NCBI GenBank assembly: GCA_039800465.1
Contig: JBDLQQ010000386.1
Span: forward strand, 1 to 37,447
Direction of reading: 5' to 3'
Length of the DNA stretch: 37,447 nt
From: Verrucomicrobiota bacterium
GTDB lineage: Bacteria > Verrucomicrobiota > Verrucomicrobiia > Limisphaerales > UBA9464
The notes below the pieces were generated by a model. The model did no database searches. It saw only the letters and a program-made list of their open reading frames with translations, and had not been told where the DNA came from. Position 1 is the stretch's first letter, and every line of letters starts with the position of its first letter. The position numbers and the translations under genes were made by a program. Positions 20,339 to 31,233 of this stretch are shown here, piece by piece.

Positions 20339-20413
20339 GCCGGCTTAGCTCAGCGGCAGAGCAACGGTTTTGTAAACCGTGGGTCGTCGGTTCAATCCCG
20401 ACAGCCGGCTCCA
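20339..20413 (+). tRNA. tRNA-Thr (anticodon TGT), CCA encoded
   Basis: Folded by hand. The acceptor stem GCCGGCT/AGCCGGC has 7 perfect pairs. The D stem is GCTC/GAGC. The anticodon stem is ACGGT/ACCGT with loop TTTGTAA, giving anticodon TGT. The variable loop is GGGTC. The T stem is GTCGG/CCGAC with loop TTCAATC. The discriminator is T, followed by CCA. Confidence 0.95.
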
Positions 20414-20419
20414 CTCAGG

Positions 20420-20440
20420 AACCCCGTTTTTGTTGGGGTT
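20420..20440 (+). terminator. Possible hairpin terminator after tRNA-Thr
   Basis: AACCCC-gtttttgtt-GGGGTT forms a 6-bp stem with a T-rich loop, 7 nt after the tRNA. Only a short T run follows, so the call is weak. Confidence 0.3.
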
Positions 20441-20582
20441 TCCCCCTCCAAATGGAATCAGGTTGATCGGGTGGCCGGTGATGACCAACGACGCATCTCA
20501 GGTAGTGCGCGCCTGCTGAACTCCGCATGAAACCGAGGCGCAACCGCGCAGGCGCCTGCAGACGCCTCGTTCGCCGGCGGGG

Positions 20583-20972
20583 TCATGGCGACCGTCTCCA
20601 ATCAATCGACTCATCACTCCACGTTCCCAGCCCGTCGTAAGCGTTGAAGGAACGCTCAATGTCCGCGTCTTCCCCAGAGCCTCCCCGAACGCCATCTCGG
20701 CCGAGACTCAGCAACGTGACGATCCCTGCTGAGTTGGTCTGGTAGGTCAACGAACGCTTCCATCCATCCACAATGCTCGTATCGAACCCGCTCATCGGGG
20801 GAAGTGAAGCCAGGTCCGGCGGCAACTGATTGTGAGCGCGCGCGTATTGGAGAATGCGCCGTTTGGTGACGTGCATGCGCGTTTGGGTCAGCGACTTCGG
20901 TGGGATGCGGTCCAGACACCCAGAAATCATGCCTGCGGCCAGGACTGAGAGAATGGAATGTTGAAAACGCAT
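20583..20972 (-). CDS. Lipoprotein with type II secretion pseudopilin (GspG-like) globular domain
   Basis: From ATG 20972 the product reads MRFQHSILSVLAAGMISGC, with a lipobox (ISGC). ILQYARAHNQLPPDLASLPP...DGWKRSLTYQTNSAGIVTLLSLGRDGVRGGSGEDADI then follows. This matches the GspG C-terminal pattern as I remember it (Y....g.yP..L..L....D.WG....Y........l.SlG.DG..GG.g...Di). Confidence 0.6.
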   Translation of the reverse strand: MRFQHSILSVLAAGMISGCLDRIPPKSLTQTRMHVTKRRILQYARAHNQLPPDLASLPPMSGFDTSIVDGWKRSLTYQTNSAGIVTLLSLGRDGVRGGSGEDADIERSFNAYDGLGTWSDESIDWRRSP

Positions 20973-21198
20973 GACGTGCTCCGTGGCCGAACGATGTCGA
21001 GGTCCCCTCACCTTAGCCTGACGAAGTGGAACTTGTGACTACCACCGAAGTGGCTTCGGCCACGACCACCAATCAATTCAAAATCTCGCCAGTCGATGCG
21101 AGCAGCCGCCACTCCACTTCCTGGGACGAGGATCGCATCCGTGATGTCCCCAGTGCGGGAACGGATCCGCCACAACGCAGGGTGAGACGACACCCGCA

Positions 21199-21501
21199 TC
21201 AGTCGTTGAATCCGAACAACCGGGTGACCCACCCCGTAATGACCCGGATCGACGCGAGCATCCCCACATACATCACCGGATGCCACCACTCCAACTTCGG
21301 ATACATCGGCATCAACCCCAACATCGTGACACCCATCAGGGCGATGGCGACCACCTCCAAAACCACCACATGAAACCAGCCAAAAGCACACCCCGTGCGC
21401 TCGCTCAACCACTCCAGAACCTTGTCGGGGTAGACAATCGCTGCAGCCAGTGCCACCAGGACGATGTCATACCAATTCATTCTCCCGCGTCGTAAAGCCA
21501 T
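21199..21501 (-). CDS. Hypothetical small membrane protein
   Basis: 93-100 aa, starting at ATG 21501 or 21480. It has three hydrophobic segments (YDIVLVALAAAIVY, FHVVVLEVVAIALMGVTMLGLM, VMYVGMLASIRVITGWV). The gene is in the lower-GC islet. No family recognised. Confidence 0.45.
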   Translation of the reverse strand: MALRRGRMNWYDIVLVALAAAIVYPDKVLEWLSERTGCAFGWFHVVVLEVVAIALMGVTMLGLMPMYPKLEWWHPVMYVGMLASIRVITGWVTRLFGFND

Positions 21502-21733
21502 ATCGTGCGTGCTGCCGTCTCAACGTTCCTCGGGCAGCTTACCGCAGCCGAATCCTCCCAGCCTTCCCAAAATCTTCCGTGACCCGGGGGGCGGGAGAAC
21601 GAAGCCGAGATCCAAGCCGGTCTCGTTCCACGGACCCACTGCACCGTCTCTGGGAATCAGGCTTCGAATCCGATGCTTCCATGGCTCCTCTCCCGGGGAT
21701 GCAGGAGATTAAGTCCGAAGCGGTCGCCCCACT

Positions 21734-22207
21734 CTAATCCATTGCCGATGGTCTGGACCGAATGGGGTCCCGATGCCCTCGGATCCGCAGGATACGGGAG
21801 AGGTTGTACTCACGGACACCCCACCATACCTCCCGTGTTTCTGGGTTCTCAACTCGGCAGAGAAGCCAGCCCGGCGCGAATTCCAGGCGGTTCATTCCAC
21901 CGCTGCCCGTTGGCTGTGACCACTCGAATGAGTGCCAACCGGTGCGGCGATAGGAGCCAGCGGGTCTGGTCGAGATCTCCTCGCTGCCACCGGGAGCCCC
22001 TGATGGATCCGGCCAGGGATCCAAGTGGGTCATCACCTGCCCGTCACGGAATTCGGCGACAAGATTCGCGCTGCAGAGACATGTAAAATAGCCACCTCGC
22101 CAGAAGCCTCCCGCACTGTGCGGCGTGCCGAACCAAACGAGCGCCATGGAGGCCCCCAATCCCGCCCACCACGCGCGAGACCTGAGATGATGCCGACTCA
22201 TTTCCAA
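21734..22207 (-). CDS. Hypothetical protein, possibly secreted
   Basis: 157-aa ORF with a signal-like N-terminus (RAWWAGLGASMALVWFGTPHSAG). It is Trp-rich. I recognise no motif, so coding status is uncertain. Confidence 0.35.
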   Translation of the reverse strand: MEMSRHHLRSRAWWAGLGASMALVWFGTPHSAGGFWRGGYFTCLCSANLVAEFRDGQVMTHLDPWPDPSGAPGGSEEISTRPAGSYRRTGWHSFEWSQPTGSGGMNRLEFAPGWLLCRVENPETREVWWGVREYNLSRILRIRGHRDPIRSRPSAMD

Positions 22208-22269
22208 AGCGGCTGAATTCGTCGATACGAGGCCATTGTCCGTCTCCGAAGGTGGTTTTGATCGGGACG

Positions 22270-22317
22270 TCAGCGATTGAATCCGTGGAACAGGATGTTG
22301 GTGTCGATGGACAGCAT
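22270..22317 (-). pseudogene. Remnant of a PIN-domain (VapC-like) toxin gene, truncated after 15 codons
   Basis: An ATG lies 3 nt after the antitoxin stop and reads MLSIDTNILFHGFNR then TGA. (L/I)DTN(I/V)L is the classic first acidic motif of PIN toxins. None of the three downstream frames continues a PIN-like sequence. Confidence 0.6.
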
Positions 22318-22320
22318 GGC

Positions 22321-22590
22321 CTATTTCCTTCCACCCCGCCTCAACGACACCTCAACAGTAGTCCGCTGCGCTTCAACCTTGATTCCCTCATCGGTCAACC
22401 CCTTCCAACCAAGCAGGCGCGGCTTGGGCGGGTGCCACTCCCGGTTCGCATCCGAATCCGAAGCGTACACGCTGAGGATGTACTCGATCCCACGTCGTGC
22501 GAGCTCGGCCAGAGGTATCTCACGGGCTTCGCAAAGCCTCTTCGCGCGAGCAGACGTCTCATCCGCGAGTTGGATCCGGGTTCTCGTCAT
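22321..22590 (-). CDS. Ribbon-helix-helix (CopG/VapB-like) antitoxin
   Basis: The 89-aa product from ATG 22590 reads MTRTRIQLADETSARAKRLCEAREIPLAELARRGIEYIL. A beta-strand followed by two helices at the N-terminus is the RHH pattern. It is immediately followed by the PIN remnant. The longer 176-aa ORF N-terminus is Arg/Gly-rich shadow. Confidence 0.7.
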   Translation of the reverse strand: MTRTRIQLADETSARAKRLCEAREIPLAELARRGIEYILSVYASDSDANREWHPPKPRLLGWKGLTDEGIKVEAQRTTVEVSLRRGGRK

Positions 22591-22726
22591 GCCATTGCTT
22601 TGACAGCAGTCGTGTATGCCGTCAATGCAACGGCTTGGATCCGACGGACCCCACCCGGATGCGGCGCCAGAGGCCCCGGATCCGGGAAAGGTTTGGCGTC
22701 CCAACCGCCCGCGATAGCATCCACCT

Positions 22727-27929: not shown

Positions 27930-29252
27930 CTACTCCGCCACCACCCGATAGAAGGCCTGGGAGGGCGGCACCGGCGGATCCGTCAGGCGCTGCTCCACGA
28001 ACAGCGCACGACCCGGAGTCGGGTACGTCAGGCTGCCCTGTGCCGGCCACCACGACTGGTGATCGTGACTCGTCTCCACCTGGTAGCTGCGGCTCGGGGC
28101 GGTCGGGAACCCGAGGGTCGCATTGCGGTCCCCGTCCAGCTTCAGCGTGTCGATGCGGAGATAGCTGCCCGACGACGTCGGATCGGTCCCGGTCTGGTAT
28201 TCGGTCAGCTCCGTCGACTGGTCCTGGTCGGTGTCGTCCGTGGCCCCCTTGGCGAGGGATCTGAAATAGAAGCGTTCCCAGTCGTCTGGAAGCCCATCCT
28301 GATCCGTGTCGTCCGCGCCGACCACGACGCCTTCCAGAAGGAGCCTGGGCGGATCAAACAGAAGGTTCTCGCGGGTCGCCCATTGCGGATAGGCGCCCGC
28401 TCCACCCCCTCCGGTGCCGCCCGGGGTGACCTGGTTCGCGGGTGACAGCGAGGCGAGGATCAGACGGAGCCGACCCTCGTGGAGGGCGGATTGGAGGTAT
28501 CCGACGATCTGGGGATCCTTCAGATCGAGATCGAAGGTGAACACGGCATCCTCGGGAACCAGCTCCCCCGGCGGCACGTTGGTGGTGGTGCCAACGGCCC
28601 AGGGGCGGACCTCGAAGGGCGGCTGGGTCCACTCGGGATTCGCCTGGCCGACATTGTTGGAGACGTCGACCAATTGTCCCTGATCCCCGAACATCGCCGC
28701 GAAGGCGTTGCGGGTGCCGATGGAGATGTTGGCCGAGTTGATCGGGTTGATCCGGCCGTAGGGGGAGTTCTCCAGGAAGGTGGCCGACGTGAACCCATTC
28801 CGGAAGCCGGCGCCATAGAGCTCCACGGGACGTCCGGGATCCGCATCCGGGACGTATCCCGGCTGGTTGGTCGCGTAGGTCAGGTAGGGATCGAAGGTCG
28901 CGTCATAGATGAACGCGTTGTTGACCGAGTTCCGGAGCTCGACCCGGGCGCGCCGCAGGAGGTAGCGGGTCGGACCGGCGTTGGTCGACACCTGGGTGTC
29001 GGTGTTCCATCCCATCAGATACTGGGCGTCCCGGGTGTCGAACCGGGGGTCGAACGAGGCGAAGGACGGAGCGACCGAGCGGTCCCCCAGGAAATCGCCG
29101 AAGGGGTACACCCACCGGTCCATCGACGGTGCCGGCGGCGTGATGGAGAACTCTCCCCCCAACGCCTGGGCCAGGATTCCCAGCCCGATGCAAAGCCCCC
29201 AGACCCGGTTCCGGGTATAGCTCAGGACCCAATCCCATCCCGATTGTTTCAT
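27930..29252 (-). CDS. Secreted hypothetical protein with Asp-rich thrombospondin-type-3-like calcium-binding motifs
   Basis: 440 aa with a signal/anchor segment (VWGLCIGLGILAQALGG). It carries DDTDQDGLPDDWERFYF and DDTDQDQSTELTEYQTGTDP motifs. The C-terminal beta domain ends in FYRVVAE. Confidence 0.6.
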   Translation of the reverse strand: MKQSGWDWVLSYTRNRVWGLCIGLGILAQALGGEFSITPPAPSMDRWVYPFGDFLGDRSVAPSFASFDPRFDTRDAQYLMGWNTDTQVSTNAGPTRYLLRRARVELRNSVNNAFIYDATFDPYLTYATNQPGYVPDADPGRPVELYGAGFRNGFTSATFLENSPYGRINPINSANISIGTRNAFAAMFGDQGQLVDVSNNVGQANPEWTQPPFEVRPWAVGTTTNVPPGELVPEDAVFTFDLDLKDPQIVGYLQSALHEGRLRLILASLSPANQVTPGGTGGGGAGAYPQWATRENLLFDPPRLLLEGVVVGADDTDQDGLPDDWERFYFRSLAKGATDDTDQDQSTELTEYQTGTDPTSSGSYLRIDTLKLDGDRNATLGFPTAPSRSYQVETSHDHQSWWPAQGSLTYPTPGRALFVEQRLTDPPVPPSQAFYRVVAE

Positions 29253-29323: not shown

Positions 29324-29989
29324 TCAGCGGCGACGGCGCAGGCCGGTGACCACGAATCCGGCACCAATCGCGAGGAGGGCCAGGGTCCCGGGCTCCGGAA
29401 CCACCTGCACATCCACCATGGCGGAGTCGAAGCTCAGGCTGTGCTCCACCGCATTGAAGGAGATGGAGTACTGGCTGACGTTCCGACCCGAGAGATCCCA
29501 CTGCCAGGCCGAGGACACATAGACGCCGCTGCCCGGGGTGCCGGGTTGGCCGACCTGGACGCGGTCGGTCTCCGTCCGGGTGGCGGTCAGGAAGCCTCCG
29601 TCGTAGTTGAGGCGGACGCTGTTGTAGTCCAACTCGGTGCCGAACGTCCGGGTCTGGAGCACCACCAGTCCGAGGGGATTGGAGCCCGACGCGTAGCTGA
29701 TCGTGAACGCGCTCGTCTCGGCCATGTTGTAGATGTTGCCCGTGCCCGTGATCAGGGCCCCGGGGGTCAGCTGGGTCAGGACCGGAGAGAGATCGTTGCC
29801 AAAGTTCGGCCGATTGCCCGGGGCGCCCACCGGAACCGTGAAGCTCTCCCAGAGCGACGAGGTCGATCCAGGCTGGGCCCGGAAGGTCGGGACATAGAAG
29901 CCATTGGTACCCGCCGTTGCGGTCGCCCACATCGAGGCCACTACCACACCGACCACGCTGATCTGCTTCAGGATGTTCATAGGATTCAA
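29324..29989 (-). CDS. PEP-CTERM sorting-domain protein
   Basis: 221 aa with a signal peptide (ISVVGVVVASMWATATA). The C-terminus VPEPGTLALLAIGAGFVVTGLRRRR is a textbook PEP-CTERM motif: PEP, a TM helix, then an Arg cluster. Confidence 0.8.
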   Translation of the reverse strand: MNPMNILKQISVVGVVVASMWATATAGTNGFYVPTFRAQPGSTSSLWESFTVPVGAPGNRPNFGNDLSPVLTQLTPGALITGTGNIYNMAETSAFTISYASGSNPLGLVVLQTRTFGTELDYNSVRLNYDGGFLTATRTETDRVQVGQPGTPGSGVYVSSAWQWDLSGRNVSQYSISFNAVEHSLSFDSAMVDVQVVPEPGTLALLAIGAGFVVTGLRRRR

Positions 29990-30369
29990 ACATTAGACGG
30001 GTTTCTCAAAACCGCCAACGTGAGATCAGCGCAGGTTGACATCGGGGATCCTCTACGACGGATTCCCTGCGCCCTGAGGGCGGTCTCCACGTCAACCGGA
30101 TAGGCACTCCGGCTCCAGGACCCACACTTCGCTGGATGCCGGATTCAAGGGCGGCATCCGCAGTGAGGAGTGGTGGGAGTCCCGTCCCTGACCCGAGTTC
30201 ATTCGGCACATCAAGAGAGACAGGATCAGGGACAACCTGGGACGGGCGTGTCGAAAAACCTCTCAAAAGTACCAAACCCGTCGCCGGCATTGGTTCTGCT
30301 GCACCCTCAATTGTCCAAGGGGAGAGGATTTCACGCCTCCACCAGCCAAGCCTCTGCCCCGGACGCGCC

Positions 30370-31152
30370 ATGACCCGAAGACCCCAACACAATCCAGTCC
30401 CCATCCATGGGCAGCATGCGCTGGTTGCCGGGGTCCTCGCGCTAGGTCTCCTCGCTCCATCGGCAGCCATGTCGATGGACCTGTATGTCCTGGATCCCAC
30501 CTATTCCACATTCCTGTTGGATGTTGAGCCTTCGGACACAATCGAGAATGTGATGGCGAAGATCCAAGATTCCCAAGGGATCCCACCCGACCGTCAGTAT
30601 CTCTATTTTGGGAGCCGGTTCCTCGAGTCGGGCCGGACCGTGTCCGACTACAACATCCTGAGGAACTCCACCCTCAACTTGGTCGGCATTACCGCCTACG
30701 CCGGAACCCCCCTGCCCCATACGACCTGGAATTTCGGGGTTGCCGACATGACCGCTGGACCAGGCAACGGATGGACCCTGTGGCAGCACACGGGGACGCT
30801 GGACCTGTCCACCTACACACCCGGAGCGATATCCCTCGTCATCCACGGCTACAACGGGACGGCGGAGGGCACGCCCACCGGATACGATCCAACGGTGTCC
30901 TATTCCCTGACGCTCCTCACAGCATCTGGAGGGATCACCGGGTTTTCATCGGGTCAGTTCCATCTCTCGGGAACCTTCTCCGGGACAGCGTCCCTCTCGC
31001 AGGTTGGCAATACTCTGGTGCTCTTGGTTCCGGCTTCGGCAACACCCGTTCCCGAACCCTCGCCTGGGGTTCCTACGTTGGGCATGACCCTGCTCCTGGG
31101 GGCCCACGAGCTGCGCCGCAGGAAAGCTGCAGGGACCCTGAGAGCCCCTTGA
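30370..31152 (+). CDS. Secreted ubiquitin-domain protein with PEP-CTERM anchor
   Basis: 260 aa from ATG 30370. It starts with a signal peptide ([18 protein letters not shown]). Residues 36-105 are a ubiquitin-like domain. A ~120-aa Thr/Gly-rich domain follows. The tail is [26 protein letters not shown] (PEP-CTERM-like, from nt 31048). Confidence 0.85.
30475..30684 (+). other. Eukaryote-type ubiquitin fold domain (PF00240-like) within the 30370-31152 CDS
   Basis: The domain reads [70 protein letters not shown]. It aligns without gaps to ubiquitin residues 1-70, with about 43/70 identical by my hand count. Identical blocks include [25 protein letters not shown] and STL. Confidence 0.85.
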
Positions 31153-31233
31153 GCGGCCTGTAGAAACGGGAGTCTTCCCAACCGCACAGGGCCCGACGCT
31201 TTCCCTTCCAGGAACCCGCGGTACCCTGAACCC

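Follow-up and report, generated by a model that had tools for sequence, protein, structure and literature searches.

Ubiquitin is considered a hallmark of eukaryotic life. Bacterial surface proteins that carry PEP-CTERM signals and are sorted by exosortases were reportedly described by Haft in 2006, and are said to include PATR-repeat proteins and PepA of Zoogloea. In 2018, Bacteroides fragilis was called the only bacterium with a ubiquitin homolog (PMC6194340). Only two bacterial ubiquitin homologs are described in the literature that we searched, BfUbb of B. fragilis and BoUbb of Bacteroides ovatus, which are imported by ButCD and poison a periplasmic peptidyl-prolyl isomerase (PPIase) of competitors (PMC11467351). 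A survey of polymorphic toxins does not mention secreted ubiquitin domains (PMC3482391), and no paper linking ubiquitin to PEP-CTERM was found in the literature searched. Here, we analyze a gene at positions 30370–31152 of a 37,447-nucleotide stretch of contig JBDLQQ010000386.1 (assembly GCA_039800465.1; the whole stretch is referred to as the window). The host is a freshwater-type Verrucomicrobium. The encoded protein is composed of a predicted signal peptide, a eukaryote-type ubiquitin domain, a β-rich module, and a PEP-CTERM-like tail. By this layout, it is a new, probably surface-anchored variant of the known kind of secreted bacterial ubiquitin homolog, and its family is undescribed.

The best explanation of the data, to which we give a probability of about 0.6, is that the gene encodes an exported, non-conjugatable ubiquitin head, which is displayed on a β-helix-like stalk with a PEP-CTERM-type signal and has a new extracellular partner. 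The topology and architecture in this explanation are very likely. The binding role of the head, which is read from substitution patterns in the family, is tentative, with odds somewhat short of even. The gene had been singled out by an earlier reading of the nucleotide sequence alone (the original prediction). The open reading frame (ORF) named there is present on the forward strand, and its residues 36–105 are as quoted. The parts of the gene are:

30370..31152, forward strand: whole gene, 260 amino acids and a stop codon; signal peptide, ubiquitin domain, β-rich pre-anchor module, and PEP-CTERM-like tail
30370..30474, forward strand: Sec-type signal peptide, residues 1–35, read from the sequence; cleavage predicted
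30475..30684, forward strand: ubiquitin (β-grasp) domain, residues 36–105, equivalent to ubiquitin residues 1–70; PF00240, PDB ubiquitin chains, AlphaFold2, Foldseek
30685..31035, forward strand: β-rich pre-anchor module, residues 106–222; AlphaFold2, Foldseek (weak matches), phmmer
31036..31149, forward strand: PEP-CTERM-like sorting tail, residues 223–260; three-part layout read from the sequence

Ubiquitin domain

The domain formed by residues 36–105 is a eukaryote-type ubiquitin, and not a ThiS, MoaD, Pup, or defense-system ubiquitin-like protein (Ubl). In a gapless comparison, 43 of its 70 positions (61%) are identical to those of human ubiquitin, including a 10-residue identical run, in agreement with the hand count of the original prediction. 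The protein matches PF00240 over residues 46–106 with a score of 60.3 bits (cut-off 25.4, E = 1.6e-16), and the only other Pfam family found at E ≤ 1 is the related Rad60-SLD family PF11976; ThiS/MoaD and Pup families gave no match at this threshold. Residues 36–105 were aligned by phmmer to residues 1–70 of ubiquitin chains in the PDB with E ~1e-21. PADLOC detected no defense-system Ubl. The distinction from native bacterial Ubls, which had been drawn from sequence identity alone, is thus borne out by the profile searches.

The AlphaFold2 (AF2) model of the protein, built on 59 family sequences, has a predicted local distance difference test (pLDDT) score of 94–97 over residues 36–106. The secondary structure elements are in the order β-β-α-β-β-3(10)-β. 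The predicted fold superposes on solved ubiquitin chains in Foldseek with a root-mean-square deviation (rmsd) of 0.5–0.8 Å over ~72 residues and a target TM-score of 0.9 or more. A PF00240 search and a superposition on ubiquitin were the checks proposed with the original prediction, and both support its assignment of the domain.

Of the seven lysines of ubiquitin, K29 alone is kept, and the other six are substituted (K6L, K11S, K27M, K33S, K48R, and K63R). The hydrophobic patch is altered by L8P and I44Y, while V70 is retained. The equivalent of ubiquitin residues 71–76 (LRLRGG) is GITAYA, and the chain runs on into the next domain; the family consensus at these positions is A-T-A-A-F-S. All of these changes had been listed correctly in the original prediction. 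Since GITAYA replaces LRLRGG and there is no free Gly-Gly, conjugation of the domain is not possible. No genes for E1, E2, E3, or a deubiquitinase (JAB) were found among the window neighbors scanned.

Authenticity and selection of the gene

The ORF could be extended to a start at 30136; the ATG at 30370 is backed by the family alignment and by the gene call of an ortholog. The identical 260-residue protein is encoded on 3–4 other contigs, which come from at least three other samples. The closest ortholog (P0001, locus L083) is 95% identical, and ubiD is located downstream of the gene there too. Between P0001 and the window gene, synonymous divergence (dS) is 0.118, non-synonymous divergence (dN) is 0.025, and their ratio ω is 0.21. 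The gene is under purifying selection, which is strongest on the ubiquitin head: the ubiquitin part differs by six synonymous and no non-synonymous changes, and the stalk module by seven non-synonymous ones.

The probability that the gene is an artifact, whether a pseudogene in decay or the product of chimeric assembly with eukaryotic DNA, is negligible. An artifact would be in keeping with the degenerate PEP-CTERM tail and with a composition different from that of the flanks: the GC content of the gene is 0.61, and its third-position GC content (GC3) is 0.72, compared to 0.83–0.89 in nine neighboring genes. However, the gene is flanked on either side by bacterial genes in a bacterial contig of 37 kb, its ubiquitin is fused in frame to a signal peptide and a stalk module that are both bacterial, independent assemblies hold the identical protein, and the ortholog is syntenic and under purifying selection. 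A chimera, of which the original prediction had warned, is excluded by the bacterial flanks, the identical copies in independent assemblies, and the syntenic, selected ortholog with the adjoining ubiD that a search for orthologs, also proposed there, recovered. A genuine contaminant looks different. The match at locus L059, from Paracoccus marinus NBRC 100637, is on a 530-bp contig and has 100% identical, canonical ubiquitin fused to S27a, which is eukaryotic contamination of a bacterial assembly.

Predicted signal peptide, probable stalk module, and PEP-CTERM-like tail

The predicted signal peptide is composed of a basic n-region of 16 residues, a 14-residue hydrophobic core, and the sequence SAAMS, with small residues at positions −3 and −1. 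Cleavage is predicted at A-M-S/M (the slash marks the site), directly before Met1 of ubiquitin. Throughout the aligned family, a small-x-small site lies immediately before ubiquitin Met1, as in TATA/MTIYV and VASG/MPISV. Because this site is conserved, the mature protein should start at ubiquitin Met1. The Sec system would export the protein, and signal peptidase would cut right before Met1, leaving the N-terminus of ubiquitin as that of the mature protein.

Residues 106–222 were described in the original prediction as a Thr/Gly-rich domain of about 120 residues. The domain is there, but it is a folded β-module and not a low-complexity linker. Modelled alone with AF2, it has a pLDDT of 91 and a predicted TM-score (pTM) of 0.83, and is all-β. 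Its best Foldseek matches are weak, with E of 0.03–0.18 and a query TM-score (TMq) of ~0.5, and are β-helix passenger domains: Ssp (8e7f, E = 0.034), 7jvi, and IgA1 protease (3h09). Judging from the model, the module probably forms a short β-helix or β-solenoid stalk.

When 1.84 billion representative proteins were scanned in full with phmmer, 61 relatives of the module were retrieved. Outside the ubiquitin family, the module is the extreme C-terminal end of large proteins. It matches the C-terminal ~100 residues of P0136, P0139, P0148, P0150, and P0157 with E of 1e-5 to 1e-3. Four of these five proteins contain PATR repeats (PF12951), all five end in PEP-CTERM (PF07589), and none has a ubiquitin match. 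Proteins P0109 and P0110 share the motif ...Y(S/T)(W/F)...TA.GGI(T/S)GF....F..., which is followed by PVPEPS. Since the module precedes PEP-CTERM in PATR-repeat proteins that have no ubiquitin match, the stalk and tail are, on the grounds of sequence homology, a reusable pre-anchor display cassette, which has ubiquitin as its cargo here.

The tail contains VPEP at residues 227–230 (31048–31059), a 13-residue hydrophobic stretch, and RRRK at residues 249–252 (31114–31125), followed by AAGTLRAP. Its pLDDT is below 50, as expected for a membrane-embedded signal. The aligned tails of several relatives pass the profile models, TIGR02595 in the case of P0019 (18.4 bits, threshold 16) and P0060 (16.0 bits, threshold 16), and PF07589 in the case of P0131 (26.2 bits, threshold 20.7). 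Many of the closest relatives, including P0003, P0005, P0008, P0010, P0012, and P0017, have the tail variant VPEIDP...LLERRRLKAA, which the end of the window tail, ...HELRRRKAA, resembles. Loci L001 and L002, which have VPEIDP-type tails, are labelled Planctomycetota. The adjoining gene at 29324–29989 has a canonical PEP-CTERM, which indicates that the organism uses PEP-CTERM sorting. The VPEP/hydrophobic/RRRK tail would retain the protein in the inner membrane until processing by an exosortase, and the ectodomain formed by ubiquitin and the stalk would then move on to the surface of the cell or into the exopolysaccharide layer.

Several observations weigh against such sorting of the window protein. 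Neither the complete protein nor its isolated tail matches PF07589 (E ≤ 10) or TIGR02595 (E ≤ 1). The hydrophobic stretch of the tail is short and is followed by His-Glu. The tail has the highest dN/dS within the gene, 0.41, a value based on small counts. No match to exosortase families was found among the window ORFs scanned. The anchor of the window protein may be weakened or used differently. The PEP-CTERM anchor of the original prediction is thus retained in its three-part layout and in the tails of relatives that pass the models, but not in the tail of the window protein itself, which fails both of them.

Family and rebuilt binding face

A word-indexed protein search returned 111 proteins. 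About 55 clusters at 90% identity (P0001 and P0003–P0053) cover 65–100% of the query with 46–60% identity (95% in P0001), and their members are 195–331 residues long. All of these clusters originate from metagenomes or metagenome-assembled genomes (MAGs), and where named, the proteins are called "hypothetical protein". The names "L40e" and "ubiquitin" given to relatives by the automatic annotation of JGI are mis-annotations. Within the GTDB species set, the full architecture is present in about 10 genomes, labelled Planctomycetaceae, Planctomycetia, Kuenenia, "Pseudomonadales" (two MAGs), Verrucomicrobiota (three), Gemmatimonadota (one), and Halothiobacillus (one). The original prediction had considered the architecture new and the domain a captured eukaryotic gene. 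The architecture is unpublished in the literature searched, but dozens of copies are public under the label "hypothetical protein". The domain is of eukaryotic type, but it belongs to a bacterial family of ~55 clusters and is not the product of a one-off direct capture.

The identity of family members to ubiquitin is 50–79%, and the differences recur at the same positions. In an alignment of 56 members, R42Y and I44Y are each present in 98%, L8P/S in 98%, Q49L in 93%, H68P in 84%, Q40S in 82%, G10Y in 79%, and K6L in 66%. The window copy departs from this consensus by F at ubiquitin position 49, N at position 68, and R at position 40. The core residues L15, V17, I23, V26, L43, L50, L56, L67, and L69 are the same as in ubiquitin in 82–100% of the members. 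In the same proportion of members, most of the stretch 15–32, including K27 and K29, and most of the loop 50–59, including D58 and Y59, are identical to ubiquitin.

The β-sheet face formed by L8, I44, and H68 is the surface used by most ubiquitin-binding domains. According to one of two roles offered in the original prediction, the protein is a mimic or decoy for the ubiquitin-binding proteins of grazers or eukaryotic hosts. The handling of phagosomes, for example, could be altered in this way. The derivation of the domain from eukaryotic ubiquitin is in favor of this role, as is the near-identity to ubiquitin, across the family, of helix 15–32 and of loop 50–59 with its D58 patch. However, the L8/I44/H68 patch is changed to P/S8, Y44, and P68, positions 42 and 49 are changed too, to Y42 and L49, and the overall identity of the family has drifted away from ubiquitin. 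Furthermore, ubiquitin-binding machinery is cytosolic, whereas the protein would be tethered outside the bacterium. The replacement of the I44 face across the family makes a classical decoy role unlikely.

The changed face could alternatively be an interface within the protein. β-helix proteins commonly need capping domains, and the ubiquitin domain, lacking any ligand, might do no more than cap the stalk at its N-terminus as a very stable, fast-folding unit, in a PEP-CTERM protein that forms matrix or flocs. Such a cap would agree with the linker of ~2 residues between the ubiquitin strand, which extends to residue 106, and the first strand of the stalk (109–111), and with the pTM of 0.69, which, although the ends are disordered, points to two domains held in a fixed orientation; the contact between them could then be the rebuilt hydrophobic face. 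However, the "YLY" subtype of ubiquitin, which has Y42, Y44, and L or F at position 49, often together with L8P and H68P, is also joined to unrelated C-terminal parts, in the actinobacterial TIG-type proteins P0061 and P0064 and in the 415-residue P0101. Conversely, more canonical heads, 75–79% identical to ubiquitin, are attached to the same stalk in L007, P0060, and P0042. The lack of non-synonymous changes in the head, compared to seven in the stalk, and the autotransporter versions described below, in which ubiquitin is essentially the sole passenger, also speak against a purely structural function, which we consider improbable.

The occurrence of "YLY" heads with other partners, and of canonical heads on the same stalk, suggests, if only indirectly, that the conserved tyrosine patch is exposed and functional and not a mere domain interface. 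The same substitution patterns suggest that the "YLY" subtype has a distinct binding specificity, independent of the anchor. We hypothesize that, in the exported and stalk-displayed protein, ubiquitin acts as a binding head and not as a modifier, with the core, the helix, and the 50–59 loop kept. The rebuilt aromatic-hydrophobic patch of Y42, Y44, L49, P68, P8, L6, and Y10 would most likely bind a new extracellular protein or glycan.

Genomic neighborhood

The window encodes a tricorn-type protease, an HtrA-type protease, ABC transporters, GH95, UbiD, CheA, and a methyl-accepting chemotaxis protein (MCP). The neighbors of the ubiquitin gene are a PEP-CTERM protein, an unknown secreted protein, UbiD, CheA, and the MCP. 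The first two of these are:

29324-29989, reverse strand: 221-residue protein whose only domain is a canonical PEP-CTERM (27.6 bits), directly upstream of the ubiquitin gene and divergent from it
27930-29252, reverse strand: 440-residue signal-peptide protein with no Pfam match and with Asp-rich DTDQD repeats, located beyond 29324-29989

Both have native codon usage with a GC3 of 0.85–0.87, unlike the ubiquitin gene. The UbiD protein is 84% identical to that of Verrucomicrobiota MAGs, and its best 80 matches mostly have Verrucomicrobiota labels, including Limisphaerales and Pedosphaera. In these 80 related Verrucomicrobiota loci, a ubiquitin gene was never found within 4 kb of ubiD (0/80). The insertion is specific to this lineage, and the absence of the gene near ubiD in relatives, together with its atypical codon usage, makes lateral acquisition probable, with another bacterium as the probable source. 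Flanking repeats are short and at chance level, and no insertion scars were identified among them. In every locus compared (L001–L011, L083, and the window), the family gene is GC-poorer than its own locus, by 0.7 to 7 points, which is consistent with frequent transfer of the gene or with a constraint on its own composition. A donor was sought from GC content and none could be named, as the family gene is GC-poorer in every locus whatever the GC content of the host.

Only 81 bp (31153-31233) separate the ubiquitin gene from ubiD, and the arrangement is the same in L083. No terminator-like or promoter-like sites were found near the gene. The short gap without a terminator-like site means that the ubiquitin gene and ubiD may be co-transcribed. 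An all-against-all BLAST of ORFs from the window and 10 family loci identified no shared neighbors. As these 11 loci have no common neighbor, the gene appears to work alone. It would be a mobile singleton, and a diverged branch of the wider set of bacterial ubiquitins that are secreted or displayed on the surface.

The second role offered in the original prediction is that of a BfUbb-like antibacterial toxin, in which the released head would kill competitors through a periplasmic target. The examples of BfUbb and BoUbb show that bacteria can use a secreted, eukaryote-like ubiquitin as a weapon against one another (PMC5705921, PMC11467351), and the window protein shares with them the layout of a signal peptide followed by ubiquitin. 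However, they are free proteins of ~76 residues with an essential C-terminal disulfide (PMC11467351), whereas the window protein lacks cysteine and continues into a stalk and an anchor. Uptake depends on the ButCD importer, a SusCD-type transporter of Bacteroides, a genus to which the host does not belong, and the gene has no conserved immunity-like neighbor. We therefore regard a toxin of this kind as very unlikely.

Other features of the window and of the compared loci are less closely connected to the ubiquitin gene. A tRNA-Thr (TGT) gene at 20339-20413 is followed by ~2.3 kb of lower GC content (20400-22700; 0.59–0.62 compared to ~0.66) with short ORFs only, which may be what is left of an element that had inserted at the tRNA gene. 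Seven MAGs (L086, L093, L102, L111, L132, L147, and L161) are labelled Akkermansia muciniphila, Klebsiella, or Bifidobacteriaceae and encode UbiD proteins that are 72–81% identical to that of the window; their taxonomic labels look unreliable.

Putatively exported ubiquitins in other bacteria

In a scan of GTDB species genomes, at least 599 stretches were matched, of which at least 571 encode ubiquitin relatives. The counts given here are from the best 80 loci of the scan (L001–L080), which contain 83 ubiquitin matches. A signal-peptide-like segment ends exactly before ubiquitin Met1 in 74 of the 83 matches. The median identity to the human protein is 89%, and LRGG is kept in only four. Eukaryote-type ubiquitin preceded by a Sec-type signal peptide is common across many bacterial phyla, a pattern that the literature searched does not report. 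Two ubiquitin matches per locus are present in L028, L034, and L053 (Rhodocyclaceae, Nanopelagicales, and Acidimicrobiales). Both copies of L053 and the copy of L056 have no evident signal peptide.

The C-terminal partners of these ubiquitins vary. They include autotransporter barrels (PF03797), in which ubiquitin is essentially the sole passenger, and PEP-CTERM. IPTL-type tails are present in Rhodoferax, Burkholderiaceae, and Paracidovorax, and tails that resemble S-layer homology (SLH) domains, as judged by eye, in Saccharibacillus and Cohnella. A possible LPXTG-like end was noticed in Coriobacteriaceae. A TIG domain with a Cys-rich tail is found in MAGs with Actinobacteria labels, one of them labelled Candidatus Planktophila. 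Dyella species have no C-terminal partner, and the ORF stops after ...LVLRL.

Phages or viruses were considered as vectors of the gene and rejected: ubiquitin matches in IMG/VR are canonical and end in LRLRGG, have no signal peptide, and none of them is joined to the stalk module. They are mostly located on contigs labelled as giant-virus MAGs (GVMAG).

Many of the other bacterial secreted ubiquitins are 85–97% identical to eukaryotic ubiquitin. This is most easily explained by the constraint of a eukaryotic partner, and is the one argument from the wider set in favor of the decoy role weighed above. It also leads to a broader, doubtful possibility, in which extracellular eukaryote-type ubiquitin is a widespread and so far overlooked strategy of hundreds of bacterial species, with a signal peptide joined exactly to Met1 and with lineage-specific anchors (autotransporter barrels, PEP-CTERM, IPTL-type tails, or SLH). 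The phyla would include Pseudomonadota, Verrucomicrobiota, Actinomycetota, Bacillota, Bacteroidota, Planctomycetota, and others. Eukaryotic partners, possibly protist grazers, algae, or hosts, would select for the 85–97% identity, and the window gene would be part of a "YLY" branch that diverged and took on a different, new ligand. Were this speculation true, the proteins would form a previously unrecognized class of surface effectors acting between kingdoms, with BfUbb as only one special case.

Comparison with known systems

In many bacterial phyla, ubiquitin appears to have been captured, made exportable, deprived of its conjugation end, and joined to surface-display modules. Annotation pipelines label such proteins "hypothetical", "ubiquitin", or "ribosomal protein L40e". 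They raise the questions of what the ligand of an extracellular ubiquitin is, and why many copies are nearly identical to ubiquitin while the face is rebuilt in the "YLY" branch. It is also a question whether they provide environmental bacteria with a route to handle grazers, hosts, or each other.

Like the window protein, BfUbb and BoUbb are eukaryote-type ubiquitins (~61–63% identical to human ubiquitin) that are encoded by bacterial genes, and have a Sec signal peptide and no usable Gly-Gly; they act outside the cytoplasm, as the window protein would too. They differ from it in being free proteins of 76 residues, whereas the mature window protein has ~225 residues, with a 117-residue stalk and the PEP-CTERM-like tail. 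Their essential C-terminal cysteine, which forms a disulfide, has no counterpart in the 260 residues of the window protein, which moreover has a rebuilt I44 face and is from Verrucomicrobiota. The sequence used as that of BfUbb in this comparison matches the PDB entries 8hm3_A/8hm1_A ("Putative ubiquitin", residues 1–76) with 166.7 bits. In a neighbor-joining tree of the 70-residue ubiquitin domains, which was calculated without bootstrap and is only coarse, the family groups together on a long branch, and BfUbb is positioned on another, separate long branch.

PEP-CTERM proteins have an N-terminal signal peptide, which is predicted in the window protein, and share with it the PATR-type pre-anchor β-module and the VPEP/hydrophobic/Arg-rich tail. 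However, the payload of PATR proteins consists of long β-helix repeats instead of ubiquitin, and the window tail is below the model thresholds. Eukaryotic ubiquitin fusions (polyubiquitin, Ub-L40, and Ub-S27a) have the same PF00240 domain with a β-grasp fold at the N-terminus of a fusion. They are cytosolic and processed after LRLRGG, whereas the window protein would be exported, has lost six of the seven lysines, and has a rebuilt I44 patch. The β-grasp fold is also common to the Bil, CBASS-associated, and ThiS/MoaD Ubls, though not to Pup. These Ubls and Pup are cytosolic and have Gly-Gly-like ends and adjoining E1, E2, or JAB genes, whereas the window gene has no such neighbors, and its ubiquitin is much closer in sequence to the eukaryotic protein than any of them.

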